A stretch of 64,000 nucleotides of DNA from a virus (taxonomy: Duplodnaviria; Caudoviricetes). A model generated the notes under the pieces. It worked only from the letters and a program-made list of their open reading frames with translations. It did not search any database and was not told where the DNA came from. Position numbers and translations under genes: made by a program. Position 1 is the first letter of the stretch. Every line of letters starts with the position of its first letter. Location of the stretch: IMG/VR virus record IMGVR_UViG_3300045599_000040, positions 8,158 through 72,157 of that record, one strand, 5' to 3'. Positions 8,422-47,180 of this stretch are shown one piece after another.

Positions 8422-8467
8422 AAAATTTATAAAACAATCCTTTTAACTGGATACAGGAGGTGAAAAT

Positions 8468-8638
8468 ATGTTTGGTGTTGACATTGGTGAAATTGTTGAT
8501 GAGTTAACAAGGCGAATTGAGAACTTGGAGCGTATTCAAAAGAAGAAAAATATTGAATATAGAGAGGATGATTTGCTTCAAGGAAAAATCATGGCATTAG
8601 AGGAATTTCGTGCCTGGTTGTCTATTGAGTATTTATAA
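8468..8638 (+). CDS. Small hypothetical protein (56 aa, not in ORF track)
   Basis: AGGAGG RBS; MFGVDIGEIVDELTRRIENLE...SIEYL. Confidence 0.65.
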   Translation: MFGVDIGEIVDELTRRIENLERIQKKKNIEYREDDLLQGKIMALEEFRAWLSIEYL

Positions 8639-8664
8639 AACAGAATTTTATAAGGAGGGATAAA

Positions 8665-9114
8665 TTGATCTTTTTAACAATTGTTTTTATTGCATACTAT
8701 CTGATTGTACTTGTTAAAGGTAGTTTTTTATCAGATTTAATTATTAAAGCTGGTGAAGATGAAATTAAGAGGGTAGAGACAGGATCAAAAAATGTTGACG
8801 AGTCCACTTATAAATTAGCTGCTACAGGATGCTTTTTCATTGTATTGTTGGTCTTAGAGCTTATTTACTTAGTTCTTGCTATTAGCCACGATATTTATAA
8901 GTATCCTACATTGATATTAATTCTATATGTTATTTTAACTTTTGCTTTTACCAAGTGGGGAAGAAAAAAAGACCTAACTACTGATGATGGTAGAAATGCA
9001 TATCGAAAACAACTCTACCAAAAAAATAAACGATATTCGTTTAAAGGTTTTATGATTCGACTTTTGTTTCTTACATATTTTTGCTACATGTTTTATATTC
9101 TAGTGTTTCAATAA
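8665..9114 (+). CDS. Hypothetical membrane protein
   Basis: AAGGAGG RBS; about 4 hydrophobic segments. Confidence 0.7.
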   Translation: MIFLTIVFIAYYLIVLVKGSFLSDLIIKAGEDEIKRVETGSKNVDESTYKLAATGCFFIVLLVLELIYLVLAISHDIYKYPTLILILYVILTFAFTKWGRKKDLTTDDGRNAYRKQLYQKNKRYSFKGFMIRLLFLTYFCYMFYILVFQ

Positions 9115-9152
9115 AACAAATCCCTTTAAACTGACTGAGGGGAGGTGGAAAG

Positions 9153-9323
9153 ATGCGAGTTAATGTAACTCTAAAAAATGGGGATGTATATACAACGACA
9201 ATTGAAGAAAGCGATTTTCGAGATTTTTTCAAGAAATTTGCAGAGACAAACAGCTGTTACGTCTGCTTTAAAGATTTAATTGTGATCAAAGATGAGATTT
9301 CTTGTATTACCACTTTATCATAA
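9153..9323 (+). CDS. Small hypothetical protein (56 aa, not in ORF track)
   Basis: GGAGGTGG RBS; MRVNVTLKNGDVYTTTIEE. Confidence 0.6.
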   Translation: MRVNVTLKNGDVYTTTIEESDFRDFFKKFAETNSCYVCFKDLIVIKDEISCITTLS

Positions 9324-9362
9324 AGAATAAATTTATAAATAAATCCAAATAGAAAAGGAGAA

Positions 9363-9764
9363 ATGGGAATGAATAATAGTGCGAGTGTGTATAGTGAGAG
9401 TGTAGAAAAGAAATATCAAGAGTATATGGATAAATACGAGATTCCAGAGTATTACGAGTTTCAACTTAAAACATTGCTATCACTACAAGAAGAGTATAAT
9501 GAGGCAACTAAAAAAACACCTGAACACACGAAAAGTCGTGAAAGTTTATTACATATGATTCAGAGAATGCAGCTACCCTTAAATGTATTAAAAGAAAGAA
9601 ATGAAAATATAGTTAAAATCAGCATTGAGGAATTTTGCTACTATGTTGATAAACCATTTATTAAAGAATTATGGGATGAATACCAGAGTATTGATGGATA
9701 TATAAGAGCATTAGCGACACTTCCGCAATACAAGGACTTAACTCACAAAGATAGCAAATTCTAA
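9363..9764 (+). CDS. Hypothetical protein
   Basis: AAAGGAG RBS. Confidence 0.65.
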   Translation: MGMNNSASVYSESVEKKYQEYMDKYEIPEYYEFQLKTLLSLQEEYNEATKKTPEHTKSRESLLHMIQRMQLPLNVLKERNENIVKISIEEFCYYVDKPFIKELWDEYQSIDGYIRALATLPQYKDLTHKDSKF

Positions 9765-9782
9765 TTAAAACAGTAATTTTAA

Positions 9783-10358
9783 ATGGTTGGGGATGATAAT
9801 TCGATGTTGAACTTAGAATTTATCGCAAAATTGTGCCATGAAGTAAACAGAGCATATTGCAGTAGTATTGGGGATGAGTCACACACATCATGGGATGAAG
9901 CCCCTGAATGGCAAAAGAAAAGTGCAATAAATGGAATAAAGTTTCATATCGAAAATGAAACTAAGCCAGAGGATAGTCACTATAGTTGGATGAAAGAGAA
10001 GATCGAAGATGGTTGGATTTATGGTGAGGTTAAAGACGCAGAACAGAAAACTCATCCCTGCATTGTTTCATACGATCAACTTCCTCAAGAGCAACGCAGC
10101 AAAGATTACATCTTTAAGGCAATTTGCAATTTCTTTAAAAATGAGAAAATGGTTACAGAAGAAAAAGGAAGTTACCATGTTGGTCAAGAGGTTATAATTA
10201 AAGATTGTAGCTATGCGAGAATGGAAGGGATCGTAGGGAAAAGAGCAACTATCGTTGAAGTGCGAGACGGTGAATTTGATTACGAAGTTAAGACAGAGGA
10301 TGGCATTGTGGATTTACTTAACTATGATGAAGTAGAGTTAATAGAAAACAATCAATAA
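9783..10358 (+). CDS. RyR-domain protein fused to an SH3/KOW-like C-terminal domain
   Basis: HEVNRAYC, SHYSWMKEKIEDGWIYG, KTHPCIVSYDQLPQEQRSKD match the RyR repeat pattern; YHVGQEVII...GKRATIVEV is KOW-like. Confidence 0.7.
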   Translation: MVGDDNSMLNLEFIAKLCHEVNRAYCSSIGDESHTSWDEAPEWQKKSAINGIKFHIENETKPEDSHYSWMKEKIEDGWIYGEVKDAEQKTHPCIVSYDQLPQEQRSKDYIFKAICNFFKNEKMVTEEKGSYHVGQEVIIKDCSYARMEGIVGKRATIVEVRDGEFDYEVKTEDGIVDLLNYDEVELIENNQ

Positions 10359-10472
10359 ATCATCTCTATTTTTCTCTATTTTCCTTCTATTTACTTCGTT
10401 TTTTAAGGTTAAGAATCCATTAAAAGAGGGATTTTAAAACGAAATATAAAAGAATGGAGAGGATATGTCGTA

Positions 10473-11327
10473 ATTGTTAATATTGATGGATTTGATATTA
10501 GAGCAATAAATGATAATGCAATTATAGAAGAAGATTGGTATGGATTTATTTACATTACATTAAATCTCATAAATAACAAAAAGTACTTGGGACAAAAGAA
10601 ATTCGACAATGGGAGATGGAAAAAATATCTGGGAAGTGGAAAGGTTCTTAAACAAGCTATTAACAAATATAAAAAAGAAAATTTTAAGAGAGTGATTGTT
10701 TACTTGGCCTCATCAAAAAAAGAATTAGATTATAAAGAAAAAGAGTTAATAGGCTTTTTTGATGCTGTGCAAAACGAAGATTGGTATAACGTTGCAGAAG
10801 GTGGGACTGGACTAACATTCTCAAATGAGTGTAATGAAGAACTGTTAAAACAGCGCAATAATAAAATAAGTTTAGCATTAAAAAGGTTTTGGAGTAGTTC
10901 AGATAATAAACAAATGATGAGAGATTCTATGAGTGGGAAATTAAGTTCTATGAAAGGGAGAAAACTCACTGAAAAGCATAAGCAAGGGATTAGCCAAGGG
11001 AACAAAGGGAAAAAACGATCTGATGAACAATTAGAAAAACTTAAAGAAAGTCAAAGAAGAAGATGGGAGAAAGATGAGGAACGCGAAAAGATAAGTAGAC
11101 GGAATAAGGGAAAGATTCCTTGGAACAAAGGAAAAGTTACCCCTGATGATGTCAGAAGGAAACAAAGCGAGGCAGCCAAGAGAAGGTTTCAAAATAAAGA
11201 AGAGAAAGAAAAAATAAAAAACAGAAAATATATTAACAAATGCGTTGCCTGTAGCAAGGAGTTTGAATCTCGTAGCAATCGTACTTTGCGATGCCAGGAG
11301 TGTAAAGAGGTGAAAATAAATGCTTAA
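10473..11327 (+). CDS. Free-standing GIY-YIG endonuclease with NUMOD3-like repeats; start uncertain
   Basis: Frame is open from 10413 and holds YGFIYITLNLINNKKYLGQ upstream of the called TTG at 10587; YLGSG, YNVAEGG, HKQGISQGNKGKK, PWNKGK; C-terminal CxxC pair. Confidence 0.8.
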   Translation: MVNIDGFDIRAINDNAIIEEDWYGFIYITLNLINNKKYLGQKKFDNGRWKKYLGSGKVLKQAINKYKKENFKRVIVYLASSKKELDYKEKELIGFFDAVQNEDWYNVAEGGTGLTFSNECNEELLKQRNNKISLALKRFWSSSDNKQMMRDSMSGKLSSMKGRKLTEKHKQGISQGNKGKKRSDEQLEKLKESQRRRWEKDEEREKISRRNKGKIPWNKGKVTPDDVRRKQSEAAKRRFQNKEEKEKIKNRKYINKCVACSKEFESRSNRTLRCQECKEVKINA

Positions 11328-12921: not shown

Positions 12922-14208
12922 ATGAGGGAAGGAATTACATTGAAACTACCCAAGACAATTATTAAGCGCAATGGCAAAACTGTTGAATTCCAAACGGGGA
13001 AAATTACACAAGCAATTAAAAAAGCTGGAGAGCAAACAGGTGAATTTGACATTCTCGAAGCGGAGCGACTTACCCAAGAAGTGCTAAAATTAATCGAGAA
13101 TCGTAACAATTATGAGGGTTTGACAGTTGAGGGAGTTCAAGACTTGGTAGAAATGGTTTTGCTAGAATCAAAATACAAGACTACAGCAAAAGAATACATT
13201 ATCTATCGAGAAAAAAGAAATCAGGCTAGAGTGCCAGACATTTTTAAATTTCGCCTCAACTTAAAACCGTATGAATATCCAGAGCTTGCTAAATATAAAG
13301 AGGCCATCCAGCACTCTTATTGGCTGCACACTGAATTTAATTACACATCAGATATTCAAGACTTTAAAGTGAATGTATCAGATGTGGAGCGAAATGCTAT
13401 TAAAAATGCAATGCTTGCAATTGCACAAGTAGAGGTTGCGGTTAAAACATTTTGGGGCGACTTATATCATCGATTGCCTAAGCCAGAGCTAGGGTCTGTG
13501 GGCTATACATTTGCAGAAAGTGAAGTGCGACATCACGATGCATATTCTCACTTACTTGAAATTCTGGGGTTAAATGAAGAATTTGAAAAGATTAAAACAA
13601 TTCCTCAACTGATGCAACGTGTGGATTATTTAACTAAAAGTGTTGCTTTATCCCGAACAGGAAGTGACAAAGATTACGCATTGTCATTGTTGTTATTTTC
13701 CTTGTTTATTGAGCATGTATCATTATTCTCGCAGTTTTTAATTATTATGTCATTTAATAAATATCGAAATATATTTAAGGGTATGTCGAATGTAATCGAA
13801 GCAACTTCTAAAGAAGAGCAGATTCACGGGCTATTCGGCATCGAACTGATTAACACTATTCGTCAAGAACGTCCAGATTGGTTTGATGATCACATGGAAC
13901 ATCTGGTAATTCAAGCGTGTAAGGAAGCTTATGAATCTGAGCAGCTTGTTATTGATTGGATCTATGAAGCAGGAGATTTAGATTTTTTACCAAAAGCGAC
14001 AGTCAAGGAGTTTGTTAAGAACCGCTTAAACAACTCGCTTCAAAGTGTGGGTTATAAGCCAATATTTGAAGTGAATGAAATGGCAGTTGAAGCAACAGAT
14101 TGGTTTAACGATGAATTGTATACCACGAAGCATGTGGATTTCTTTGTAAAACGTTCGGTTAATTACAGTAAACGCACACGAAGCATCACTAGCGATGATT
14201 TATTCTAA
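12922..14208 (+). CDS. nrdB: Class I ribonucleotide reductase beta subunit with N-terminal ATP-cone
   Basis: ATP-cone IIKRNGKTVEF...VEGVQDLVE...AKEYIIYR; metal ligands IAQVEV, ESEVRHHDAY, IEHVSLFSQF, KEEQIH; tail HVDFF...DDLF. Confidence 0.92.
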   Translation: MREGITLKLPKTIIKRNGKTVEFQTGKITQAIKKAGEQTGEFDILEAERLTQEVLKLIENRNNYEGLTVEGVQDLVEMVLLESKYKTTAKEYIIYREKRNQARVPDIFKFRLNLKPYEYPELAKYKEAIQHSYWLHTEFNYTSDIQDFKVNVSDVERNAIKNAMLAIAQVEVAVKTFWGDLYHRLPKPELGSVGYTFAESEVRHHDAYSHLLEILGLNEEFEKIKTIPQLMQRVDYLTKSVALSRTGSDKDYALSLLLFSLFIEHVSLFSQFLIIMSFNKYRNIFKGMSNVIEATSKEEQIHGLFGIELINTIRQERPDWFDDHMEHLVIQACKEAYESEQLVIDWIYEAGDLDFLPKATVKEFVKNRLNNSLQSVGYKPIFEVNEMAVEATDWFNDELYTTKHVDFFVKRSVNYSKRTRSITSDDLF

Positions 14209-14241: not shown

Positions 14242-15444
14242 ATGACATTTAAATGGCTCAATGAAAATAGTCGCAAATTTTTAGAGAGTGGGTATTTAAC
14301 TGAAGGAGTCACACCAGAGCAGCGCATTCGGACAATTGCAGATTCAGCAGAATCTATTTTAGGAATCGATGGCTTTGCTGATAAGTTTTATGATTATATG
14401 AGCAAAGGTTACTACTCACTATCATCACCTGTCTGGTCTAATTTCGGTATGGATAGGGGTCTGCCTATTAGCTGCTTCAATTCCTATGTTCCAGACACTA
14501 TGGGAGGTATCTTGTACGCGCAATCCGAAGTTGGAATGATGAGTAAGTTTGGCGGTGGAACATCTGGATATTTTGGCGATCTACGTCATCGGGGAGCAAC
14601 AATCAAAGACAATGGACACTCTTCAGGAGCTGTTCATTTTATGAAGTTGTTTGAATCGATGATCGATGTTGTTTCGCAAGGCTCAGTTCGTCGTGGAGCC
14701 TTCTCACCATACTTGCCAATTGATCATCCTGACATTGAGGAATTTTTAAATATTGGCACAGAGGGAGATCCCATTCAAAAACTTACTCACGGCGTAACTG
14801 TGACAGATGAATGGATGAAAGACATGATTGCAGGAGACACGGAAAAGAGAGCGTTGTGGGCGAAAGTTATTCAGAGACGTGTTGAAATTGGTTATCCATA
14901 TATTTTCTTTACGGATACGGTGAATAACAACACAGTGGATGTTTATAAAGATAAGGGGTTGAAGATAAAATCGGGGAATTTATGCAATGAAATAGCCCTG
15001 CCAAGTAACGATGAATGGTCATTTGTTTGTAATTTATCTTCCATGAATTTATTGCATTATGACGAATGGAAAGATACTGACGCAGTAGAGACTATGGTGT
15101 TTTTCTTAGATGCTGTGATGACTGAGTTTCTAACTAAACTTGAAAGATATCGTGATTCTGACTCTAAGGAAGATCAGTTGGCTTTTTACTTCATGGAGCG
15201 AGCATATAACTTCGCAAAAGAAAATCGAGCACTGGGTCTTGGAGCATTGGGGTGGCACTCCTATCTTCAGTCTAAAATGATTCCATTTGAAAGTATGGAT
15301 GCTGCTAAACTGAATTCGCGTATTTTCAGCTTCATTCAATCCAAGGCGCACGAAGCGTCTAAAGAATTGGCTAAATTATATGGAGAACCAGAGGTTTTGA
15401 AAGGATATGGGCGCAGAAACACAACGCTGACAGCAATAGCACCT
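14242..15444 (+). CDS. nrdA: Ribonucleotide reductase alpha subunit, exon 1 (no ATP-cone)
   Basis: SSPVWSN, PISCF, GGGTSG, SGNLCNEI, FVCNLSS, RALGLG, TAIAP. Confidence 0.92.
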
Positions 15445-16485
15445 TAAAATATAGGGCGTTAATAAATTAATATTAACGATAACACTTTCGAATTGCTGGG
15501 AACCCCTAACGTAAAGTCGAGGGCGATCAGCAGCCAAGACTTACCAGTATAACTTATAAATAAAAAAAACAAGGAAGGAGGGATTTTGTGTGGGGGAAAT
15601 GCATTAGTTTTCCCAAGCTAGAAGTGACAAGGGACGGAAGAGTAAGAGCATGGCATAACTCTTGGAAAAGATATGTAGAAAAGAAACCAAGATACGATAA
15701 GGATGGATATAAAATAATTTCTACAAGACGTGATGATGGAAGATCAACGACAGTTAGAGTCCATCGATTGATAGCGGAAGCTTATATACCCAATCCAGAA
15801 AATAAACCAGTGGTAAATCATAAAAATGGAATAAAGGATGACAATCAAGTAGAAAACTTAGAGTGGGTTACTGTTTCTGAAAACACACAACATGGTTACG
15901 ATGTTTTAGGAAACATATCAGCAAAATCTCAAAGAATGCTATTATATATTGATGAAAAACCTTTTTCGACTTATGATTCAATAAATAAGGCTTGCAAAAT
16001 AATAGGAATTGATCGGGGTGCTCTAGATTTTTTAGTAAAAATGTCTGAAAGATATATTTCATATAAAAAAGTGAAAGAAAATTTTCAGGCAGTTTCCCAT
16101 AACAAAGAAATATGGGAATCAAGGATAACTTTAAATATTCGTGGTAAATTTTATAAGATTGGGAATAAGTATTACGACAAGATAAAAGATATTGCAAAGG
16201 ATTATGGTAAAGAGAGAAGTACAATACACAGATGGATTAATAAAAGTCATCCAAAAGGAATTCAAATAGAAATCATAAGTTGCAAAGAGTTTTTAAAAAA
16301 TAAAATAAAAAATACTGGTGAGTAAGGTTCAACGACTATCCCGTTGCGGGGAGTACACTCAAGCGAGTGGAAGCGGAAGTGGTCTTACATAAAGTAAGAT
16401 GTGATATAGTCTGCTCTTTATGGAAACATAAAGCAGTTCATAAGAGAACGCACACAGAAGTAGCGAGCTGTGTGGAACACAAAGG
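15445..16485 (+). ncRNA. Group I intron in nrdA (1041 nt) carrying an HNH endonuclease
   Basis: Exon ends CCT, intron ends G; AATTGCTGGGAA...ATCAGCAGCCAAG, TTCAACGACTAT, GATATAGTCT core elements; splicing gives AIAP|TTSSAFILG. Confidence 0.92.
15588..16325 (+). CDS. Intron-encoded HNH homing endonuclease
   Basis: VHRLIAEAYIPNPENKPVVNHKNGIKDDNQVENLEWVTVSENTQH. Confidence 0.88.
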   Translation: MWGKCISFPKLEVTRDGRVRAWHNSWKRYVEKKPRYDKDGYKIISTRRDDGRSTTVRVHRLIAEAYIPNPENKPVVNHKNGIKDDNQVENLEWVTVSENTQHGYDVLGNISAKSQRMLLYIDEKPFSTYDSINKACKIIGIDRGALDFLVKMSERYISYKKVKENFQAVSHNKEIWESRITLNIRGKFYKIGNKYYDKIKDIAKDYGKERSTIHRWINKSHPKGIQIEIISCKEFLKNKIKNTGE

Positions 16486-16959
16486 ACAACAAGTTCAGCA
16501 TTCATCTTAGGCCAAGTGTCACAAAGTATTGAGCCTATTTGGTCTAATACCTATGTAAAAGACGTTGCGAAAATGAAGGTGACGATTCGCAATCCATACT
16601 TACAAGAGGTTTTAAAATCATATGGCAAGGATACACGAGAAATTTGGAATAGTATCCGTGATCATGACGGCTCTGTGCAACATCTAGACTTCTTGACCGA
16701 GCATGAAAAAGAAGTATTCAAGACATTTAGTGAAATTGACCAATATGTAATTTTAGATCAAGCTTCAACTCGCCAACAATTTTTGGATCAGAGTCAATCA
16801 CTAAATCTTATGATTAATCCTACAATGTCTGCGAAAGAAATTAATGAATTATATCTATTTGCTTGGGAAAGCAACATTAAAACTTTGTACTATCAACACA
16901 GCACAAATGCGGCACAGCAATTTAGCAAAGACAAGTTGTGTACTGTATGTGAGGCATAA
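16486..16959 (+). CDS. nrdA: NrdA exon 2; spliced product about 558 aa
   Basis: SIEP, DQSQSLN, KTLYY and C-terminal CTVCEA. Confidence 0.92.
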   Translation, partial: TTSSAFILGQVSQSIEPIWSNTYVKDVAKMKVTIRNPYLQEVLKSYGKDTREIWNSIRDHDGSVQHLDFLTEHEKEVFKTFSEIDQYVILDQASTRQQFLDQSQSLNLMINPTMSAKEINELYLFAWESNIKTLYYQHSTNAAQQFSKDKLCTVCEA

Positions 16960-17056: not shown

Positions 17057-17087
17057 TAAAATACCAATAAAAGGGGAGTTTTAACGG

Positions 17088-17645
17088 ATGTTTAAAGTTG
17101 AAGATCGAGTTTTTATTAAAGGACTTAATAAAAAAGGTGTAGTGAAAGAAGTTGATATTAAAGAAAACAAATCCAAGGTTACACATTTTAATCAATCTGA
17201 TCAAAGAATTACAGCATGGTTTGATAATAACCAACTGAGGAAGTATTTGAAACCAAAAGATAATAAGTATTACCATATGGTATATGAGTTTCATAAAGCA
17301 TTTGACCATCCTACATCAACTAAACCGACTCGATTAACTAAAGAAAAAAAGAAAAGCCATATTGATTGGATGCTTGAAGAATTGAATGAATATAAAAATG
17401 CTAACACTCTTGTTGATGAAGTTGATGCCTTAATTGATCTTCAATACTTTCTGACTGGAACCTTTGTTTTACATGGAGTAAAACCAGATAGAATTTTTGA
17501 AATCGTACATAATGCGAATATGAGCAAATTATGGGAAGATGGCAAACCCAGATATAGAGAAGAAGATGGCAAAGTAATCAAACCACCATCTTGGCAAAAT
17601 CCAGAGCCTTTAATTGCAAAAGAAATTGAGAATCAAAGCAGATAA
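17088..17645 (+). CDS. MazG-like (all-alpha) NTP pyrophosphohydrolase with N-terminal KOW-like domain
   Basis: VYEFHKAF, MLEELNE, EVDALIDLQY, VHNANMSK, GKVIKPPSW. Confidence 0.8.
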   Translation: MFKVEDRVFIKGLNKKGVVKEVDIKENKSKVTHFNQSDQRITAWFDNNQLRKYLKPKDNKYYHMVYEFHKAFDHPTSTKPTRLTKEKKKSHIDWMLEELNEYKNANTLVDEVDALIDLQYFLTGTFVLHGVKPDRIFEIVHNANMSKLWEDGKPRYREEDGKVIKPPSWQNPEPLIAKEIENQSR

Positions 17646-19963: not shown

Positions 19964-20054
19964 TAGGACGCGATTATTAAGATGAGATTTTCCGATAAAA
20001 CACTTGTTTTAACTGATTTGCTACTCATCATAAATTAACAGGGGGAGATGGAGA

Positions 20055-25984: not shown

Positions 25985-25994
25985 ATAAGAAGTT

Positions 25995-26023
25995 AGGCAG
26001 AGAGAATGTTTTTCTCTCTGCCT
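25995..26023 (+). terminator. Stem-loop terminator
   Basis: AGGCAGAGAGAA-TGTTT-TTCTCTCTGCCT. Confidence 0.6.
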
Positions 26024-26058
26024 ATAAAACAACTATTTTAAATGAAAGGAGATTAATT

Positions 26059-27911: not shown

Positions 27912-28439
27912 GTGTACAAAGGTTGGATAAAAAGTAGTTTAGCATTTCAAAAAACTATCGGGTTTTCTTATCAGGGCAAGCATCACCGCAGAAATAAATA
28001 TTATAAATTCTTCAATGTCGAAGTGACAGATGACCAATACCTAGAAATGAAAAGTAAGTGGAAACATTTCAAGGAAGATATTCAATGGGATCTTCGTAAA
28101 AAGGTTGATGAGGCTTTTGGGATTAAAGAAGGAGATTTGACTGCCTCGATCTTAAATGGTAAAAGGTATTTTTTTAATAGGTATAGCAATTTAAATTATA
28201 CTAGTAAGCTTCGTGAATGGACAAAAAACAATGGTCTTTATGTATACAATAGAGAAAAGTATATTTATGAAGGTTATATAGCGCTTAAGGCACACATTGC
28301 ACAGGATGGCAGCACTTGTTCGGAACATGAACAATATATTGAAAAGTTAACAAGAAGATGTGATTTTGATGAAAGTGATATTGATACTTATATAGATGAT
28401 TTGTTAATTATAAAAAATAAATTGAAGGAATTTAAATAA
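27912..28439 (+). CDS. Hypothetical protein
   Basis: ORF; stop codon starts a junction palindrome. Confidence 0.55.
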   Translation: MYKGWIKSSLAFQKTIGFSYQGKHHRRNKYYKFFNVEVTDDQYLEMKSKWKHFKEDIQWDLRKKVDEAFGIKEGDLTASILNGKRYFFNRYSNLNYTSKLREWTKNNGLYVYNREKYIYEGYIALKAHIAQDGSTCSEHEQYIEKLTRRCDFDESDIDTYIDDLLIIKNKLKEFK

Positions 28440-28474
28440 GATTACGATTTTAAACTGAAAGGATTTGTTCTTGA

Positions 28475-28690
28475 ATGGTTCTATATGCAATTAAAGTGTG
28501 CTACGGAGAGTATGAAGGTTATTTAAGCAGTTGGTGGAATCCAACAAAAGATCTTAATGATGCAATGATCTTTATTGGCTTAAACGAAGCAAAAGAAATG
28601 TTAATTCGATATTCAGATACCTTTGATTATGAATCCACACCAAAGATAGATTTAGTTAAATGGGATGTAAAAGAAACTATAATAAGATAA
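28475..28690 (+). CDS. Hypothetical protein
   Basis: AAAGGA RBS. Confidence 0.55.
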   Translation: MVLYAIKVCYGEYEGYLSSWWNPTKDLNDAMIFIGLNEAKEMLIRYSDTFDYESTPKIDLVKWDVKETIIR

Positions 28691-28722
28691 TATTATCATT
28701 TTAAGAGGAGGTGGGATGATAT

Positions 28723-28932
28723 ATGATTAAAACTCTAATTTCTAAATTGTATCACAAATATGTGTGTAAGCCTGATTTTGATCCGCATCAAACTTTGGAA
28801 CATTTTCTGGAAATAGCCAAGGAGGAATATGAACTTCGCAAATATTCCACTATAGACACCTTTGAGAAATTGCAACTTATACAAAAAGCTGCTTTAATCA
28901 ACTGGAAAATGAAAAACTGGGGAAGAAGATAA
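28723..28932 (+). CDS. Hypothetical protein
   Basis: GAGGAGG RBS. Confidence 0.6.
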   Translation: MIKTLISKLYHKYVCKPDFDPHQTLEHFLEIAKEEYELRKYSTIDTFEKLQLIQKAALINWKMKNWGRR

Positions 28933-28980
28933 AACCTTCGTTTTAACTGGTTTATAGAAATCAAATATAATATAATAGAG

Positions 28981-30255
28981 GTGAAATATAAAATGTCTAT
29001 ACTTCAATTAAAATCATCAAATCCTGAATTCTCATACATTATTAAAAAGAACCCAAACTCAGGAATGATTATTAAATCAATCCGCAAAGGTCATGCCTTC
29101 GGTTGGTATTCAAACGATGATACATACAACATCTATTTTAAAGATGCAGAAAACGACATTTCATACAAAGAAGATAAAGATCAGCAATTTGAATACTTAA
29201 ATGTATCAAGATATAACACCCCGTTATTTCCTTTGAATGCAATATCCGAGTTTTTAAAGTCAACATTAAACGAGCAAACTGAGCAAGATCAGAATGGTTA
29301 TCTGAATGTCTTAACCGTGAACATGCTTCATATTGAACTGGTAAGGTACATTGATTTTTTTAAAAAGCATTACCCAGACTACAACTTTGAAACAAAACAC
29401 TTAGCACATAAAAGCTATACCTTGACTATTTCAACAAATCAATCTGTGTATAAGCTTCTAAATGTTGCAAGCTCATTGTTTATTTTCTTAGCTATGTTTG
29501 GCAAGGAGTATCTAGATGTATCCGACAATTTAATTGCAAAATACATTCAATGTATTAATGTAACAGATGCTCCTTATTATATTCGCAGCCTATTCGTTAG
29601 AAACTTCCTATCAACAAAAGCAAGACTCAATAAGTTTAAAAATGAGATTGAAGCTACAAACAAATACAAAATAGACTTTGAATTTGGAAATACAGCACAG
29701 CAACGTAGAAACTATATAGAAAAAATCATTTCATTTAACAAACCTATTATTGATATTGGATGTGGCGAAGGCTTTTACATGTTTCCTTTTTCAAAAAGAA
29801 TCAAAGATCACGAGTACCATGCAATTGACACCAATAAAGAAATTGTTGAAATTCTAGAAGCAAAAATTAAGGCCAGAAACATAAAGAATGTTCTAACACA
29901 TAAATCAGTTGAAGATTTTTTAGAGTCTTACCAAGAGGAACTTTCTGATGTAATTCTTACAGAGGTAGTTGAACATTTAGAGTTAGATGAGGCTAAAAAA
30001 CTAATTAAAAAAGTTTATGACAACATAAACTTTGACAAGTTTATTATCACAACACCGAATTTTGATTTCAATAAGTTCTACGATATTGACATCAGACATG
30101 ATGACCACAAATGGGAAATGACATCTGCTGAATTCAAGGGTTGGATCTTGACTATGTTTCAAAACGATACTTGCAAATTGGACTTCTTTGGTATTGGAGA
30201 TAGGGTAAATGGTATTCAAACAACTCAAGGAGTAATAATTAGAAAAGAGGGTTAG
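28981..30255 (+). CDS. hen1: Hen1-type RNA 2'-O-methyltransferase (bacterial Pnkp partner)
   Basis: N-domain FSYIIKKNP, YLNVSRY; MTase IIDIGCGEG, LTEVVEH, ITTPN, RHDDHKWEMT..EF..W; adjacent to Pnkp. Confidence 0.85.
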   Translation: MKYKMSILQLKSSNPEFSYIIKKNPNSGMIIKSIRKGHAFGWYSNDDTYNIYFKDAENDISYKEDKDQQFEYLNVSRYNTPLFPLNAISEFLKSTLNEQTEQDQNGYLNVLTVNMLHIELVRYIDFFKKHYPDYNFETKHLAHKSYTLTISTNQSVYKLLNVASSLFIFLAMFGKEYLDVSDNLIAKYIQCINVTDAPYYIRSLFVRNFLSTKARLNKFKNEIEATNKYKIDFEFGNTAQQRRNYIEKIISFNKPIIDIGCGEGFYMFPFSKRIKDHEYHAIDTNKEIVEILEAKIKARNIKNVLTHKSVEDFLESYQEELSDVILTEVVEHLELDEAKKLIKKVYDNINFDKFIITTPNFDFNKFYDIDIRHDDHKWEMTSAEFKGWILTMFQNDTCKLDFFGIGDRVNGIQTTQGVIIRKEG

Positions 30256-30259
30256 GTTA

Positions 30260-32842
30260 ATGGAGATAAAAATTAAAGTACATACAATTTTTCTAATGGT
30301 GGGGGCAACTGAATCTGGCAAAACCACATTTGCAAAAGAAGTTCTTATTCCACAGTTGCGATTTAGTGATATAAATAAAAATTATATTTCTAATGTTCAA
30401 TATATCTCATCTGATGAGATTAGGCAGGATATCCTTGGTTATAAATATGATAAACATGATCGAGTTATGCTTGAGTCAAGTGAACATGCATTTAATCTTC
30501 TTTTTGAAAAACTTAGAGCTGCAACATCTTTTCCCATCAATGCAGAGTTTGTTATTGTCGATACAACGGGGCTATCTGAAGAGTTCAGAAACAAAGTAAT
30601 CCAAATTGCCAAAGAGAATCATTATAATATTGAATGTGTCTTGTTTGACTATAAGGATAGGAATGATTATTTCACCACTGAAACATCCAAAGCACTGATC
30701 AGTAATCATTTGACAAGACTGAGAAAAGAAGTAGTTGCGGATATAACGAGAAAAAAATACAGCCAAATTCATAAAATTAGAAACAAGAATTTCTACGATC
30801 CAGTTAGCGGAAAAGCAAATTCTGAATATAAGGTCATTGTTGAAAACATGGGAGAGTATTTGAATCATATTCTTCCTACCCATAATAAGTATATTGCAAT
30901 AGGCGATATTCATGAAAAAGTTGAGGAATTAAAATCTTTATTAATCCAACATGGATTTAATATAGACAATAACAAACTAGAGCATAGCGATAAACGATAT
31001 AGGATAATTCTTGTTGGCGATTATATTGATAAAGGCCATAATACGAAAGAGACAATTGATTTTATTTATAACAACAAAGAATGGTTTTATATTGTACTAG
31101 GTAACCATGAAAACTTTGTATACAAATATATTAATGGCGAAATATCTAAAACAGAAGCATCGGTAATGAAATATTTTGACTCAATAAATGCCATCCAAGC
31201 AGATAAAGAACTAAAAGATAAATTTTTTGAACTTGTTAATATATCTAAAAATTTTTACAGGCACATTGGAACACAAACGCCATCATTTTACGTAACACAT
31301 GCCCCTGTTCAAAACAAATACCTTGGCAAGATTGACAACGTTTCACAGAGAAATCAAAGGAGATTTGCCATTGATAGAGATAAACCAGTTGAAGGGCAAC
31401 TTCAGTTCTTAGTTGATGAAGCTGTATCAAATAATCCATTTCATGTATTTGGACATGTGGCAGTTAAAGGAATTGCTCGAATAAAAAATAAGATCAACAT
31501 TGATACTGGATGTGTTCATGGAAACTATCTCTCGTCCGTAACTCTAGACTCATGGAAACCTTTTTACAGAAAGCAAAAAACATCAGGGTTTTATATTGAG
31601 GAAGATTTGCCGCTACTGTTCCAAAAAGAAGAGAATGTTTCATTGAACGATCTAAGCGATGACAACAAGAGAAGGTTAAGATATGCTCTTAAAAATAAAA
31701 TCAACTTCATTTCAGGTACAATGTCTCCATCTGATAAAGATGTTGAATCGAATGACCTAGAATCATTAAAGAGTGGGCTAATGTATTACAAAAACAAGGG
31801 AGTGGACAGCGTAGTTCTACAACCAAAGTACATGGGGTCGCGCTGCAATATTTATCTGGATAGAAATATTGCAGAGTGCTTTGCTGTTAGCAGAAATGGA
31901 TATAAGATAAAACAGGTTGATTTGACTCAAGTTTATGAAAAATTACTTCAAAAATTTAGCCACTACATGAAAACTAATAATATCAAAACCTTTGTACTGG
32001 ATGGAGAACTTCTTCCTTGGAGTATTTTAGGAAAGGGATTGATTGAAAGGCAGTTTAGAACAATAGGTGTTGCATTAGAAACAGAGCTAAGTTTTTTAAA
32101 GCAGAATGATTTTGAAAATCAATTTCTAAGCTTGGTTGAGAATTATAACAATAGCGGATTTGAAAAGGATAGCTTTAGCACATCCAACAGTGAACTGAGT
32201 AAAAAATACGGGAATACGAACTACCAAAATTATAAAAACGTAAAAGACATCGTAAACATTTATACTTCAGTAAGTGATCATTATGAAGCCTATCAAAATT
32301 ATAAAAAGCAAGTTGAGCTATACGGCTTTGAAGGAGAGGCAACATATAAACCCTTCTCAATTCTGAAAGAAATTTATAATGATGGGAGCGAAAAGGTTCC
32401 CAACGAAAAAACATCTGAAATTTTTAATCTGGTCTCAGATGATGATTCTCTTTTGATTGATTTTAATAAGAATCCAAAATTTTATGAAGAAGCTTTGCAA
32501 TTCTATAACAATGTCACAACTGAGAAGAAGATGGAAGGTGTAGTTATCAAACCAGAAATAATGGTGGATGGAGTTGCTCCATATCTAAAGGTGCGTAATC
32601 CTAATTACCTAATAATAGTATATGGATACGACTATAAATTTCCTCATAAGTATGAGAAACTGATGGAACAAAAAAATATCAGAGGAAAGCTTGAAACATC
32701 GATCAAAGAATATAAGCTAGGAGAAAAGATGTTGTCATTCTGCTTGGATAGTATAGATGTTAACAACAAGGATTATATGCAGGTTGTAGCAAATATGCTT
32801 TTTGAAGTAGAGAAAGAAAGAGATATTGATCCAAGGCTGTAG
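30260..32842 (+). CDS. pnkp: Pnkp: polynucleotide kinase, phosphatase and RNA ligase
   Basis: Walker A GATESGKTT; GDIH, GDYIDKG, GNHE, IDTG; ligase motifs QPKYMGSR, DGELLPW, EGVVIKP, LKVRNPNYL. Confidence 0.9.
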   Translation: MEIKIKVHTIFLMVGATESGKTTFAKEVLIPQLRFSDINKNYISNVQYISSDEIRQDILGYKYDKHDRVMLESSEHAFNLLFEKLRAATSFPINAEFVIVDTTGLSEEFRNKVIQIAKENHYNIECVLFDYKDRNDYFTTETSKALISNHLTRLRKEVVADITRKKYSQIHKIRNKNFYDPVSGKANSEYKVIVENMGEYLNHILPTHNKYIAIGDIHEKVEELKSLLIQHGFNIDNNKLEHSDKRYRIILVGDYIDKGHNTKETIDFIYNNKEWFYIVLGNHENFVYKYINGEISKTEASVMKYFDSINAIQADKELKDKFFELVNISKNFYRHIGTQTPSFYVTHAPVQNKYLGKIDNVSQRNQRRFAIDRDKPVEGQLQFLVDEAVSNNPFHVFGHVAVKGIARIKNKINIDTGCVHGNYLSSVTLDSWKPFYRKQKTSGFYIEEDLPLLFQKEENVSLNDLSDDNKRRLRYALKNKINFISGTMSPSDKDVESNDLESLKSGLMYYKNKGVDSVVLQPKYMGSRCNIYLDRNIAECFAVSRNGYKIKQVDLTQVYEKLLQKFSHYMKTNNIKTFVLDGELLPWSILGKGLIERQFRTIGVALETELSFLKQNDFENQFLSLVENYNNSGFEKDSFSTSNSELSKKYGNTNYQNYKNVKDIVNIYTSVSDHYEAYQNYKKQVELYGFEGEATYKPFSILKEIYNDGSEKVPNEKTSEIFNLVSDDDSLLIDFNKNPKFYEEALQFYNNVTTEKKMEGVVIKPEIMVDGVAPYLKVRNPNYLIIVYGYDYKFPHKYEKLMEQKNIRGKLETSIKEYKLGEKMLSFCLDSIDVNNKDYMQVVANMLFEVEKERDIDPRL

Positions 32843-34695: not shown

Positions 34696-34734
34696 ACTAA
34701 ATAAAATAATTCTTTTAACGGAAGGAGAAGTAAA

Positions 34735-38904: not shown

Positions 38905-39168
38905 ATGAGTGAAGGTATATATTATATGGTGAAAATGTACAGGTTAAAATGCATAAAAGAGCTAGACTCCTTTTTCAAAGAGGAATGTACATATTACGGA
39001 CGAAAATCAAAGTCAGGAATGATCATGGCAAAAGATGAATTCGATAAGTGGTGGATAATCGAAGATTATAAAATGCACACGTACAATATATTAAACAACC
39101 ATTTTATAATCTTCGATGAATTTTTTGTGCGAAATCATAAGGAAGCAATCGGCTATAAATCACAATAA
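38905..39168 (+). CDS. Hypothetical protein
   Basis: ORF; stop codon starts a junction palindrome. Confidence 0.5.
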   Translation: MSEGIYYMVKMYRLKCIKELDSFFKEECTYYGRKSKSGMIMAKDEFDKWWIIEDYKMHTYNILNNHFIIFDEFFVRNHKEAIGYKSQ

Positions 39169-39202
39169 ATGAGATATTTTAAAGGAACTGAGGAGTGAGT
39201 AC

Positions 39203-39685: not shown

Positions 39686-39736
39686 ATGAAACCCGATAAA
39701 AACATACTTTTAAAAAGTCAACGGGAGGTGTGAGTC

Positions 39737-40352: not shown

Positions 40353-40556
40353 GTGGGTTTGAATAGAATGGATTTTCATACAATTGAAGGTTATGCCGAA
40401 ACAATATCAAATGGAATACTGGGTAATTTAAATACGAAGCTAATAGCTAAAGAAAACATAATGAATTTAATTGGTTTATCATGCTTGAATTACTCACATA
40501 ATGAGAAATTCAAAAAAGAAATGGATGCTTATTTGGCGCTAAAAGGCTTTTTATAA
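40353..40556 (+). CDS. Hypothetical protein
   Basis: ORF; stop codon starts a junction palindrome. Confidence 0.5.
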   Translation: MGLNRMDFHTIEGYAETISNGILGNLNTKLIAKENIMNLIGLSCLNYSHNEKFKKEMDAYLALKGFL

Positions 40557-40594
40557 AATACCAATTTTAAAACAACTAGGGAGGATGCATTTAT

Positions 40595-41941: not shown

Positions 41942-43429
41942 TTGAGTCAGTATGTTATTAAACATGTGGCTATTTATCTTCGTAAATCAAGAGGAGATGA
42001 AGATTCAGACTTAGAAAAACACAGAGCAGAATTGATTGATTTATGTAGACAAAACGATTGGGCATATGTTGAATATGCAGAAGTTGGGACATCAGACTCA
42101 ATTTCTCTTAGGCCAAAAATGACTGAATTAATGCAAGACATTGAACAAAGAATGTATGATGCTATTGTCACGATTCACATTGACAGATTAAGTCGTGGTG
42201 ATGAAGTGGATCGTGCCACAATAAGCAAGCTCTTAGCTAGAACAGAAACACTATTGGTTACACCACATAGAGTTTATGATTACAATAATGATACGGATAT
42301 GCTCTTAGCAGAGTTTGAGGGCATGATGGCGAGAATGGAATATAAACAAATATCTCGCCGTTTTCGACAGGGTAAGGCAAGAAATGCCAAACAAGGGCTG
42401 TGGTCAAATGGTGTTCCACCATTCCCATATGTGAGAAACCCACAAACAGGCAAGGCTGAACCTGATGAAGCAAAGTTGCCAATATATCGCTTCATGATTG
42501 ATAAATGCCTAGAAGGTTGGTCATGCACAGACATTGCTTGGGAGCTTAACAAAATGGGAGTTCCATCTCCAAAAGATGGGCTATGGAGTCCAGGGGTAGT
42601 TAGAAGGTTAGTGCGAGATGAAGTCCATCTTGGGAAAATTGTTGTAGGCAAAAAAAGAAAGCTGACTGCTTCGGGAGACATTGTATATAAACCAAAAGAA
42701 GAGTGGATTGTTTATAATAACTGCCACAAGCCAGTGAAAACACAATTGGAGCATGATAAAATACTATTCATTATTAATAGACACATCAATACACCTAAAG
42801 CAAGTCGGTCAGGGAAAAATCAATTTTCAGGACTTATTGTATGTGCAAAATGCAATAGCACCATGCAAATACAAAAAAGGACTGGAAGAACATACGATTC
42901 ACTCAAGTCATGCAATCACCGTGATCCCTTCGGTGAAAGATGCGTTAATTTTGGTGGGCAGATTGAAACAATACAACAGTATGTTTTAGCCGCAATAAAA
43001 GATAAAGAAGAAAAACTATTAGAAGCTATCAAAAAGGGATTGGGTTCTGATGATTTAAATAACCTTCATGAGTTAGCAAATGCTAAGCTTGTAGAGATTA
43101 AGGAGCAAGAAAAAGCAATTGACCGCATATATGATTTTTTAGAAAAAGGAAGGTATACAGAAGAGCAATTCGATGAAAGGTTTGGGAAGGCGAACGCTGC
43201 ATTAAGTAAACTTGAAGAAGAGTACCAAATAATCAAAACTCAATTAAACAACACACTAAATGCTCGCAATGAAGACATGCTCATCAGCGTTAGAGATGTG
43301 ATCAACATCGCAGAAAACATAGACGATCCCAAAGAAGTAAATAGAGCATACAAAAGCATTTTACAAAATATTCAATGGCTAAGAGAGGAAATGGACACTC
43401 CTCCAAAAATAATTGTAAATTTTCTTTAG
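41942..43429 (+). CDS. Large serine recombinase (phage integrase)
   Basis: AIYLRKSR, EVGTSDS...RPKM, HIDRLSRG, recombinase domain, zinc ribbon CAKC...CNH...C, coiled coil. Confidence 0.95.
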   Translation: MSQYVIKHVAIYLRKSRGDEDSDLEKHRAELIDLCRQNDWAYVEYAEVGTSDSISLRPKMTELMQDIEQRMYDAIVTIHIDRLSRGDEVDRATISKLLARTETLLVTPHRVYDYNNDTDMLLAEFEGMMARMEYKQISRRFRQGKARNAKQGLWSNGVPPFPYVRNPQTGKAEPDEAKLPIYRFMIDKCLEGWSCTDIAWELNKMGVPSPKDGLWSPGVVRRLVRDEVHLGKIVVGKKRKLTASGDIVYKPKEEWIVYNNCHKPVKTQLEHDKILFIINRHINTPKASRSGKNQFSGLIVCAKCNSTMQIQKRTGRTYDSLKSCNHRDPFGERCVNFGGQIETIQQYVLAAIKDKEEKLLEAIKKGLGSDDLNNLHELANAKLVEIKEQEKAIDRIYDFLEKGRYTEEQFDERFGKANAALSKLEEEYQIIKTQLNNTLNARNEDMLISVRDVINIAENIDDPKEVNRAYKSILQNIQWLREEMDTPPKIIVNFL

Positions 43430-44922: not shown

Positions 44923-45195
44923 TTATTTTCTTTCTTTTGTTTGCTTGTAAGCTTGGTGAAAAAATACTGCTAAACCGCCAGCAAGAATACCTTGAATAAA
45001 CGCTTCAGCTGTTAGTCCCAGCAATAGAAAAGATAGGATTGTCCCTATTCCTGGCAGAATCCATACAATGAGCCAATCAGCAATTTTAGGAGACTTTTTT
45101 ATGAATAATCCAATTAGCATTAATGCCACAACAACAGGCATCATCTGCTCTAATAAATATTGCTGGATTAACTCAGCAACAATTGTAGCTTCCAT
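44923..45195 (-). CDS. Holin (three-TM type)
   Basis: PVVVALMLIGLFIK, DWLIVWIL, QGILAGGLAVFFHQ. Confidence 0.75.
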   Translation of the reverse strand: MEATIVAELIQQYLLEQMMPVVVALMLIGLFIKKSPKIADWLIVWILPGIGTILSFLLLGLTAEAFIQGILAGGLAVFFHQAYKQTKERK

Positions 45196-45199
45196 CTAT

Positions 45200-46594
45200 T
45201 TATTCCTCCTTTACGATTGGTGAATAACCTTTCATTTTTAATTCTTCAGCTAATTTTTCTGCATTTTCTCGAATGGAAAAAGCTCCAACTTGTACGCGAT
45301 ACAACACACTCTCTTTAGGCTTAGGATTGTCACCGACTGACTCAGGTGGTGAATATTTGTAGCCCAATTCTTCAGTTATCACTTTAACTACGGCCTCAGC
45401 ATAGGTCTTCCAGTTGTTTATTAAGTTGACCATATCTTCGTTGTTATCTATGAAAGCATATTCAATGATTGTAGTATCAACCTTCCCTGTATCGCGGTGC
45501 ATGTAATAGTAGTCTTTTCCATTAGCCCCTTGTCGTGAGAAGGCTCTACGTTTGTACTGACCAGCAGCAACAATAGCGTCTAAAAGCTTATTAGCCAATT
45601 TACCATCGCTAAATATACTGTAAATCGTTTCTACCCCACGCCCACCACCTGCATTAATATGATTGGAGATACAATACTTGGCTCCACTTTTTTTAATAAT
45701 TGCTGTACGAGTAGTGGAATCAAGACTGATATCTGAATCACGGGTTAATGCAACAGGAACTCCTAATTGTTTAAAACGTTCGTATTGGTAAAGGCTAATT
45801 ACTAATGTAAAATCCTTTTCTCTAAAACCATCAAAAGTTGCACCAGGATCTGTTCCCCCATGTCCAGCATCAATTACTAATTTTGGCTTATTTGTTACTG
45901 GAACTTCTTCTTTTGGTGTATTGTCAATTGGTTTTTCATTTTCATTTTTCAGCCAAATAGCAATTGCATTGGAAATTTTTCTTCTTTCAGGTTGAGTGTT
46001 AACACGTTGTCCTTTTACTAAGCAAAGAGAACTGCCGCCACCATCAAATCCTAAAAAGTGAGTGACACCATGCTTCTTTGCTTCTGTAATCATTTCTGGA
46101 TAAGTCATTTTCTTACTAGAATCTGTAACGAATATTTGATACTCCAATGTCTTCTCGTTTAAGCCAAAGGCTGTCCTCATATGCCTTCCATTTACTATTC
46201 CCTTATCTAACTGATTGCCTATAAATTGAGGAAGGAGAAGGGGAGAGGACTCAATTGCCCAATCATAGTCTTTTGCCACTTCAGAAAATGATTTATCTAC
46301 TGTTTTAAAATGAATTGAATCACCTTTGCCACATAGAGCGAAACCATACTTAACAGCACTTTTATCACGAATAATCGAACCATAGGATTTCGCTGCTCCA
46401 AGAGTCCAACCATCGACAAAATTAAAAAAACCTGCATTAAATATAATGTCAGGTTTAGAGGATAAGCGATTATACATTTCTTCTAAGGTTTCACCTTTGC
46501 CACGGCACATAATTAGTTGTGTATCTTTAATTTCATTTTTATTAAAACGGACTATATTTAACCCATTAGCTTTATCAGTTTTCATTTTAATCAA
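45200..46594 (-). CDS. Endolysin: phosphodiester-glycosidase-like domain, Amidase_3 and SPOR
   Basis: FNAGFF, HMRTAFG, FDGGGSS; IDAGHGG..E, ISNHIN, IIEYAF; YRVQVGAF..RENAE. Confidence 0.88.
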   Translation of the reverse strand: MIKMKTDKANGLNIVRFNKNEIKDTQLIMCRGKGETLEEMYNRLSSKPDIIFNAGFFNFVDGWTLGAAKSYGSIIRDKSAVKYGFALCGKGDSIHFKTVDKSFSEVAKDYDWAIESSPLLLPQFIGNQLDKGIVNGRHMRTAFGLNEKTLEYQIFVTDSSKKMTYPEMITEAKKHGVTHFLGFDGGGSSLCLVKGQRVNTQPERRKISNAIAIWLKNENEKPIDNTPKEEVPVTNKPKLVIDAGHGGTDPGATFDGFREKDFTLVISLYQYERFKQLGVPVALTRDSDISLDSTTRTAIIKKSGAKYCISNHINAGGGRGVETIYSIFSDGKLANKLLDAIVAAGQYKRRAFSRQGANGKDYYYMHRDTGKVDTTIIEYAFIDNNEDMVNLINNWKTYAEAVVKVITEELGYKYSPPESVGDNPKPKESVLYRVQVGAFSIRENAEKLAEELKMKGYSPIVKEE

Positions 46595-46616
46595 CTCCTT
46601 CTAAAAATGGTAAAAG

Positions 46617-47036
46617 CTATTGTATTAAAAGTTTTATACCTTCTTGAGCAGGAACGCCAATTAACGCACCTATCAATAAAAGAAAGGCAATCCAAAGGTA
46701 CTTTTTGTCATTAGAGTCAGAGTTTCGTTGAACCAAATTATTTGATTTATTTTCGTTATTTTTATTTTTATTAATGTCATATCTCAATGTTTGAACTTCT
46801 TTGCTAATCCCATCTAGTTTTTCATCTTGTTTGTCCATTCGCTTATCTCTCATATTTGAACGTTCTTCTTGTTGTTCCATAAGAGTTGTCATTTTTACAA
46901 TTGCTTCTCGAATTACTGTAATATTCTCACTGTCCTTTTCAGCTTTATCTTTTATTTTTTCAACATCTTTTTCTAGCTTTTCAATTTTTACATTGAGTAC
47001 TTCTAAAGGTGGGGTAGAGGACACATCTATACACAA
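46617..47036 (-). CDS. XhlA/BhlA-like lysis accessory protein
   Basis: Coiled coil plus C-terminal TM helix, first gene of the lysis cassette. Confidence 0.6.
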   Translation of the reverse strand: MCIDVSSTPPLEVLNVKIEKLEKDVEKIKDKAEKDSENITVIREAIVKMTTLMEQQEERSNMRDKRMDKQDEKLDGISKEVQTLRYDINKNKNNENKSNNLVQRNSDSNDKKYLWIAFLLLIGALIGVPAQEGIKLLIQ

Positions 47037-47051
47037 CCCTTCTTGAAATTT

Positions 47052-47077
47052 AAAAAGAGAGGAATTTCCTCTCTTTC
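47052..47077 (-). terminator. Terminator-like hairpin just upstream of the lysis cassette
   Basis: On - strand GAAAGAGAGG-AAATT-CCTCTCTTTTT. Confidence 0.65.
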
Positions 47078-47124
47078 ATACTATATATAGATATTTATTA
47101 CATTAAAAACACAATATATAGTGT
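47078..47124. promoter_or_regulatory. Tandem NrdR-box-like sites
   Basis: ATACTATATATAGATA (47078) and ACACAATATATAGTGT (47109, full consensus match), 31 bp apart. Confidence 0.6.
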
Positions 47125-47180
47125 AAAAAATCCATTAAAATGGCTCTTTTAACTGGAAAAAATCTACTTGTAATCTAATA

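Follow-up and report, generated by a model that had tools for sequence, protein, structure and literature searches.

Heterospecific lox and FRT sites have identical arms and differing spacers, and as only sites with the same spacer recombine they permit an ordered exchange of cassettes without internal deletion. The stoperators of cluster A mycobacteriophages are dispersed sites of another kind, as they lack symmetry, follow the direction of transcription and are recognised by the immunity repressor. Here we describe a dispersed dyad, TAAAA-N6-TTTTA, found at the gene junctions of a 64,000-bp window of phage DNA, which comprises bases 8158-72157 of the 72,157-bp IMG/VR virus contig IMGVR_UViG_3300045599_000040 (coordinates below are window positions unless stated otherwise). 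We propose that this dyad is probably a dif-like, individually addressed crossover site, and not an integron site or a repressor operator. The best single mechanism that we can put forward from the sequence comparisons is that a Xer-like recombinase of the phage uses it as its core site, to which we would give a probability of about 0.45-0.5. Three further systems are relevant to this proposal, namely the pdif sites and dif modules of Acinetobacter plasmids, which are served by XerC/XerD (PMC6449649), the PeSL cassettes of T4-type phages, which consist of a promoter plus a terminator and are recombined by homology (PMC2839356), and SPBRE, the element that MrpR binds at ten promoters (PMC10516654).

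The dyad resembles pdif in that there are many 11-6-11-type sites per replicon in accessory regions, flanking gene modules that are variable between relatives, and in the association with a Xer-family recombinase, which here is a candidate. However, pdif sites are recognised by the host XerC/XerD heterodimer and have asymmetric C and D arms, whereas the arms of the present motif are symmetric and therefore imply a homodimer, as in the single-recombinase XerA, XerH and XerS systems. Furthermore, a phage is here both the replicon and the source of the candidate recombinase, and every position keeps a conserved centre of its own. The combination of identical arms with differing spacers is shared with heterospecific lox and FRT sites, but these belong to engineering practice with one or two spacer variants, whereas each genome would here have 13-40 spacers as a set of natural origin. 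Stoperators are similar in that they, too, are short and number in the dozens, lying within narrow intergenic gaps and in some cases over stop codons, and differ in their asymmetry. As with PeSL, short repeated elements border small non-essential genes and there is modular shuffling between related phages, although the present sites are 16-bp dyads without a promoter (76 sigma-70-like promoters near sites against 86 in shuffles) or a stable stem-loop. Finally, SPBRE is also a repeated intergenic element, in the same phage family, that is linked to a protein of the tyrosine-recombinase fold, but it has another sequence, ten copies at promoters and a function in repression (PMC10516654). MrpR lacks the catalytic residues, which are retained by the YomM family of recombinases considered below.

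Occurrence and architecture of the dyad

There are 12 exact copies of TAAAA-N6-TTTTA in the window against 1.21 expected from dinucleotide shuffles, with fewer than 12 in every one of 100 shuffled sequences, which confirms the enrichment over such a background that a preliminary description of this DNA had marked for checking. Over the whole 72-kb contig we count 13 exact copies, 12 of which are intergenic although the intergenic DNA amounts to 5.7 kb and should hold 0.18 copies under a first-order Markov model, and the enrichment on the contig is confined to the 6-base spacer, with other spacers of 0-14 bases giving 0-5 copies each. Chance or base composition is thus ruled out as the origin of the motif, both by the shuffle and Markov counts and by its spacer specificity. 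The sites are situated between the stop codon and the ribosome-binding site at gene junctions, 17-43 nt ahead of start codons, and are present in both transcription blocks, where each gene has a ribosome-binding site of its own.

The distribution of the motif was established by an unbiased screen for spaced palindromes, genome by genome, in which TAAAA-N6-TTTTA was the top or near-top palindrome both in the window contig and in the following relatives. SPbeta contains 34 copies, against 0-3 for other spacers, and the four other B. subtilis SPbeta-group phages contain 30-40 (phi3T 30, SPR 35, BUCT082 37 and SPbetaL4 40). The motif is also carried by the Mammaliicoccus phages phi6255 (36 copies) and phi36 (28), Geobacillus phage E3 (30), FADO (33) and Psychrobacillus phage Perkons (17), with which the list of genomes where it ranks at or near the top is complete. 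Its presence is weaker in a Staphylococcus SPbeta-like phage (17), Chewbecca (13, against 1 for the reversed control pattern), GR1 (8) and the IMG/VR genome G003 (18, including 14 between genes). No enrichment was seen in Brevibacillus phage Sundance, the Enterococcus phages VRE9_3, EF1 and nattely, Enterocloster phage CB457P1, Thomasclavelia phage TR-TP2, Lactococcus phage phiL47, Lactobacillus phage Ldl1 and several IMG/VR genomes. It is our view that the motif is, very probably, a real dyad that is bound as a duplex throughout the family, and a literature search found no paper describing it.

Beyond the core, the outer arm on the contig reads tC-n-n-(A/T)TAAAA and is equal on both sides when the arms are pooled, which gives a dyad of approximately 10-6-10, the extended geometry that had been suspected at the outset. 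The inner 5 bp of the arm are invariant, and symmetric, lineage-specific outer bases extend to about -6, being mirrored on both sides as TcT.aATAAAA in SPbeta and TGGATAAAA in FADO; for SPbeta, the site with its extended arms may be written as TCTAGATAAAA-N6-TTTTATCTAGA. The core of the site is 16 bp and with the outer arms it amounts to about 26-28 bp. Lineage-specific, symmetric outer arms are the trace to be expected of a co-evolving dimeric protein that would bind the duplex. With enrichment at N6 only and symmetric arms, the window has the two inverted arms around 6 bp that characterise a Xer/dif-type core site.

The centres were examined in nine genomes picked as separate lineages, which together provide 206 centres. 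None of the 206 is palindromic, where 5.0 would be expected (P=0.004), and within a genome no centre is duplicated in either orientation, against 3.3 expected (P=0.03). Asymmetric and unique centres fit a tyrosine-recombinase crossover site, because directionality and the avoidance of internal deletion require them.

Several other spaced palindromes were also noticed. Perkons is enriched in a variant dyad, TGAAA-N6-TTTCA (10 copies against 1.25), which suggests that arm position 2 is tolerant. Enterococcus phage VRE9_3 and the IMG/VR genome G004, both free of the motif, have a dispersed palindrome of their own, TATAA-N4-TTATA, in 18-19 copies against about 2.5, within which ATAAT-N2-ATTAT is nested, while FADO has an extra palindrome, CGTTG-N1-CAACG (13 against 0), and Sundance has AATAC-N2-GTATT (8 against 0.4).

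Breakpoints in relatives and a candidate recombinase

Breakpoints were compared by all-against-all blastn in five B. subtilis SPbeta-group genomes. The ends of high-scoring segment pairs (HSPs) with homology on the left cluster at motif offsets 15-16, which is the last base, and those with homology on the right cluster at -2 to 0, the first base. Since the HSP ends pile up at the far edge of the motif from either side, the motif belongs to both adjoining blocks, and the signal is one of exact register at the motif edges, not of the share of all breakpoints. Per junction, a breakpoint occurs in 70% of those that bear the motif and 35% of the others. Among pivots where the left flank is the same and the right differs, 27 of 35 non-redundant pairs have an identical centre, and where the right is the same and the left differs this holds for 40 of 52, with 9 of the remainder arising from a repeated downstream element. 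This second element, TTTAGAATAAAAATAAAAT plus a ribosome-binding site, stands after several copies that have different centres (SPbeta positions 13664 and 32747, and relatives) and so accounts for the apparent exceptions. In 48 pairs the centre is shared even though neither flank matches, where our own arithmetic estimate would give about 11, and at the SPbeta site 92753, with centre TATTTA, the same copy is a left pivot in comparison with phi3T and a right pivot in comparison with SPR.

Centres that are common to two genomes all follow one another in the same order (22 of 22 are colinear in one example, where a shuffled order gives about 8), and the pattern of register and pivots is replicated in Mammaliicoccus phages phi6255 and phi36. 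In the few pivots whose centres differ, the break falls where the left arm meets the centre, which is no more than suggestive of the point of exchange. In lab-evolved phi3Ts x SPbeta hybrids the crossovers lie inside blocks of 1.4-18 kb that are identical in both parents, and the edges of these blocks are motif copies. Taken from these genome comparisons, it is probable that the motif marks the pivots of module exchange in the relatives. The coincidence of breakpoints with the sites, also proposed earlier as a check, is seen at the motif edges in the SPbeta group and in Mammaliicoccus, and the initial suggestion of crossover sites for gene shuffling gains indirect support from breakpoints at motif edges with a retained centre, in relatives that encode a Xer-like recombinase. 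For the lineage of the window phage this behaviour is extrapolated from the relatives, as exact-protein look-ups, scans of genome and metagenome collections and a viral scan with the helicase returned no relatives at the DNA level, only the same phage or genomes with at most 76% polymerase identity.

In the mechanism that we propose, each copy would be a duplex site in which two inverted arms of about 10 bp surround a 6-bp centre, a core of the Xer/dif or lox type that would be bound by a recombinase dimer. The centre is asymmetric and specific to its position, and in related phages the sites probably act as pivots for the exchange of neighbouring gene blocks. Because every position retains its own centre, exchange would be limited to matching positions in two co-resident phages, and position-matched exchange of this kind would preserve gene order and avoid internal deletions. 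The protein most likely to act on the sites would be a Xer-like tyrosine recombinase of the YomM family. We infer that YomM would bind at the sites, that exchange would be site-specific as opposed to short-homology driven, and that the scheme would also be valid for the window phage.

A YomM-family recombinase is encoded in every motif-rich genome examined and ranks with the best-conserved proteins that SPbeta shares with its relatives from Staphylococcus, Mammaliicoccus and Geobacillus, with 53-82% identity, which is above that of the polymerase. The family profile recognises XerA in two structures, the archaeal 4a8e (E=4.8e-16) and 5hxy, as well as XerD (2e-5), and the alignment retains the first Arg, the hairpin Lys, H-x-x-(K/R), the His and the nucleophilic Tyr. 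The presence of YomM was used to predict motif richness in Geobacillus E3, Psychrobacillus Perkons, FADO and Chewbecca, which was then confirmed. GR1 has a distant YomM homologue, and both the gene and the motif are missing from VRE9_3, G004 and CB457P1. The yomM gene of SPbeta belongs to the tail module and is found beyond the tape-measure gene, and the window contig ends at the equivalent place. YopP and YopR were also considered as readers of the site and rejected as fitting less well than YomM, both having homologues in Sundance, which is motif-free. Literature searches found no described role for YomM.

A number of observations weigh against this interpretation. Only about 14% of HSP ends are within 25 bp of a motif, compared with 12% for junction midpoints, and when junction length, strand and gene size are controlled for, motif-bearing junctions show a modest excess of breakpoints, at 61% compared with 41% (odds ratio 2.3, p=0.03), which is pseudo-replicated over related genomes. 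The phi3Ts x SPbeta hybrids are compatible with both site-specific and homologous exchange, as the crossover point is within identical blocks, and an identical stretch of 16 bp could serve relaxed homologous recombination without a site-specific enzyme. Moreover, the avoidance of palindromes in the centres may stem from the avoidance of hairpins or cruciforms, which fully palindromic 16-mers would form. Regarding the recombinase, the SPbeta-clade YomM has a Lys in place of the second catalytic Arg, Lactococcus phage phiL47 shows no motif enrichment despite a YomM-like gene that is 54% identical to that of FADO, and the association of YomM with the motif is confounded by shared ancestry in a phylogenetically structured sample, so that it is a lead and not proof. 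Pfam and homology searches found no YomM-family or PF00589 tyrosine recombinase on the contig, which CheckV estimates to be about 44% complete; the absence of such a gene from the window, remarked upon previously, thus extends to the whole contig. A search for the continuation of the contig past the right end of the window, seeking the recombinase, yielded just one 1.8-kb Logan contig.

More broadly, large Firmicute siphoviruses (SPbeta-like phages, Joanripponvirinae-type phages such as Chewbecca, and FADO with its similar YomM-like gene) might possess a dedicated gene-exchange system, a generalisation that we offer tentatively and place somewhat below an even chance. It would consist of one YomM-family Xer-like recombinase and 13-40 dif-like sites, whose centres would serve as addresses for position-for-position swaps of modules without scrambling or deletion. 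If true, mosaicism in a large phage family would not be merely the outcome of random illegitimate or homologous events plus selection, but would in part be organised by a built-in, site-specific exchange with positional addresses. This would explain the turnover of accessory genes, including anti-defence genes, under a fixed gene order, would give the conserved recombinase YomM a function in a model phage where it is directly testable, and would provide a natural toolkit for multi-site cassette exchange. If just the part concerning a binding site is true, the motif would still be an undescribed dispersed element of SPbeta.

Competing explanations

The main rival, which we consider possible but unlikely, is that the dyad is a regulatory site exploited by short-homology recombination. 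It would bind a dimeric regulatory or architectural protein (an intra-operon roadblock, an activator or a nucleoid-type protein), and swaps would cluster there since its 16 bp are the sole short identity between unrelated junctions and would be used by phage annealing or homologous recombination. The symmetry of the site and its strict placement at gene junctions, just upstream of ribosome-binding sites, speak for this rival, as do the many breakpoints that lie away from sites and the crossovers of the laboratory hybrids in long identical blocks, which are consistent with homologous recombination. In addition, annotation of TR-TP2 points to a Sak4-like annealing protein at the YorG position in SPbeta-like phages. 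However, the spacer of a transcription factor need not avoid palindromes or duplicates within a genome, and there would be no reason for a position-specific centre to persist when both flanks have been replaced. The motif-rich genomes share no candidate regulator except proteins of the tyrosine-recombinase fold, a Pfam scan of the opposite-strand and upstream small genes for a regulator found none, and the promoter counts given above show no enrichment near sites.

It is considerably less probable that the motif acts as RNA, being a processing site or an operator of translation, or as a promoter that a phage-specific polymerase would use ahead of each ribosome-binding site. Its position shortly before start codons would suit such a role, and in some copies the centre doubles as a Shine-Dalgarno sequence (17068 in the window and 50182 in SPbeta). 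Against this, the RNA hairpins are weak, with z-scores mostly from -1.3 to +1 and arms that are often unpaired in the best fold, and there is no Rfam match, so that a hairpin or known RNA family was rejected; equal outer bases on both arms also denote the symmetry of a duplex. The start site of YonO in SPbeta has been reported upstream of yonK (PMC5467207) and, with approximate mapping from the chromosome to the phage record, it does not fall at an exact copy. A YonO promoter was discarded for this reason, and the copy-rich phi6255 has an annotated sigma-factor gene at the position of SPbeta yonO. The ComK box (A4-N5-T4) was likewise set aside, its N5 spacing showing no enrichment.

We regard as very improbable the possibility, raised in the preliminary description, that the sites are operators of a recombinase-fold repressor of the MrpR type, which would silence the prophage. 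MrpR does adopt the tyrosine-recombinase fold, and the element that it binds is repeated in SPbeta (PMC10516654); three SPBRE copies, upstream of aimR, yosX and yorE, adjoin a copy of the motif. Nevertheless, its operator differs from the motif in sequence, as ChAP-seq gave ten peaks from which the derived 15-bp motif matches SPBRE (PMC10516654), a k-mer such as AAATATGTATAT is common to all ten peak regions, and SPbeta is enriched in ATACA-N7-TGTAT as a dyad in its own right. The majority of the 34 SPbeta copies of TAAAA-N6-TTTTA are away from MrpR-bound promoters, and Brevibacillus phage Sundance has an MrpR homologue and no copies of the motif.

The integron-like system that was also suggested initially, taken as a true array of promoterless cassettes in which an IntI-type integrase would recombine attC-type sites in folded single-stranded form, has hardly any credibility, for although short same-strand genes are bounded by palindromic sites, some overlapping the upstream stop codon, the contig has no IntI-type gene, attI, common promoter (Pc) or PF00589 match, the sites are symmetric duplex-type dyads of 16-28 bp and not long attC hairpins, with folding energies of -0.2 to -6 kcal/mol that are mostly no better than shuffles, and they occur in both transcription blocks with a ribosome-binding site for every gene.

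The window phage, its sites and neighbouring genes

The closest relatives of the window phage are IMG/VR contigs with 58-76% polymerase identity and a prophage in a Clostridium metagenome-assembled genome with 61%, and it is therefore a distant SPbeta-like phage, probably a clostridial one. Its replication module keeps the gene order of SPbeta yorF-yorL, with 26-44% identity between the amino-acid sequences. The window also codes for ribonucleotide reductase, a RecD2-like helicase, a large serine recombinase and an RNA-repair pair, Hen1/Pnkp, followed by a minus-strand lysis and tail block that contains an IstB-like (IS21-family) gene within a stretch of higher G+C.

The ten exact copies listed in the preliminary description are all present where it placed them, and two had been overlooked, an intergenic copy at 17068 and one at 8208 inside an open reading frame (ORF). 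The latter (8208-8223, in ORF 8191-8421) has poor flanks and a matrix score of 13.6 and is probably non-functional. The first of the remaining sites, at 8430-8445 with centre CAATCC, begins 8 nt past the stop of that same ORF and 22 nt ahead of the ATG at 8468. At 9766-9781 (CAGTAA) the site is 1 nt past the stop of ORF 9363-9764, and at 10421-10436 (GAGGGA), with left outer arm TCCAT, it is upstream of a GIY-YIG homing-endonuclease-like gene at 10587-11327. The centre GGGGAG of the copy at 17068-17083 also serves as the ribosome-binding site of ORF 17088-17645. The top matrix score belongs to 19996-20011 (CACTTG), while 26025-26040 (CAACTA) comes immediately after a terminator-like hairpin at 25994-26024. 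The site at 28930-28945 (CCTTCG) lies upstream of Hen1 and Pnkp, its TAA being the stop of ORF 28723-28932, and those at 34702-34717 (TAATTC) and 39697-39712 (ACATAC) precede one at 40554-40569 (TACCAA), whose TAA is the stop of ORF 40353-40556. Lastly, 47136-47151 (TGGCTC), between minus-strand lysis and tail genes, provides the best extended dyad, TCCATTAAAA ... TTTTAACTGGA. The bias of the right flank and the occurrence of TCCATTAAAA at both 10416 and 47131, which had been pointed out before, are real and are explained by the symmetric outer arm.

Three one-mismatch copies are likewise as first described, namely 28437-28452 (TAAGA ... TTTTA), 28688-28703 (TAATA ... TTTTA) and 39166-39181 (TAAAT ... 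TTTTA, matrix score 19.3), in which the TAA is the stop of ORF 27912-28439, 28475-28690 and 38905-39168, respectively. The reading of the first TAA as the upstream stop codon agrees with the ORF ends at 28437, 28688, 28930, 39166 and 40554 and also at the variants 8636, 9112 and 9321, but these three variants fall below the threshold of a matrix built from exact copies and are unsupported as sites.

The sole recombinase in the window is the large serine recombinase at 41942-43429 on the plus strand, which is SprA-like and 28% identical to SPbeta YokA. It is likely to be the phage integrase and is not the expected reader of a dyad with a 6-bp spacer. On the minus strand at 55500-57712 an IstB_IS21 gene (E=1e-65) stands beside an upstream ORF of 498 amino acids without a Pfam match; the G+C content is 47% here against about 33% in the surroundings, and the segment looks like an IS21-family insertion within the tail-gene block.

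Several genes of the window are in pieces. The DnaE-type polymerase (817-5398) is divided between ORFs 817-2274 and 2735-5398, which together align with SPbeta YorL end to end. The non-coding gap of 460 bp between them has no Rfam match, relatives have HNH genes at the same point, and the gap may be an intron. The large subunit of ribonucleotide reductase is fragmented into 14242-15447 and 16516-16959 with an ORF of 245 amino acids in between, and short megablast matches to annotated group I introns of Staphylococcus phages are found at about 15490-15543 and 16402-16451, although the region 14242-16959 gave no Rfam match at the gathering score. The tape-measure region (57753-63417, minus strand) is seemingly interrupted, in that a gene with homing-endonuclease-associated HNH repeats (61837-62961) stands between an ORF of 1286 amino acids and a PhageMin_Tail ORF of 102 amino acids (63109-63417) that is 62% identical to part of SPbeta YomI. 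The Hen1 methyltransferase and the Pnkp kinase-phosphatase-ligase adjoin one another at 28981-32842 with one motif copy directly upstream, and this phage-encoded pair may counter host nucleases that attack tRNA or other RNA.

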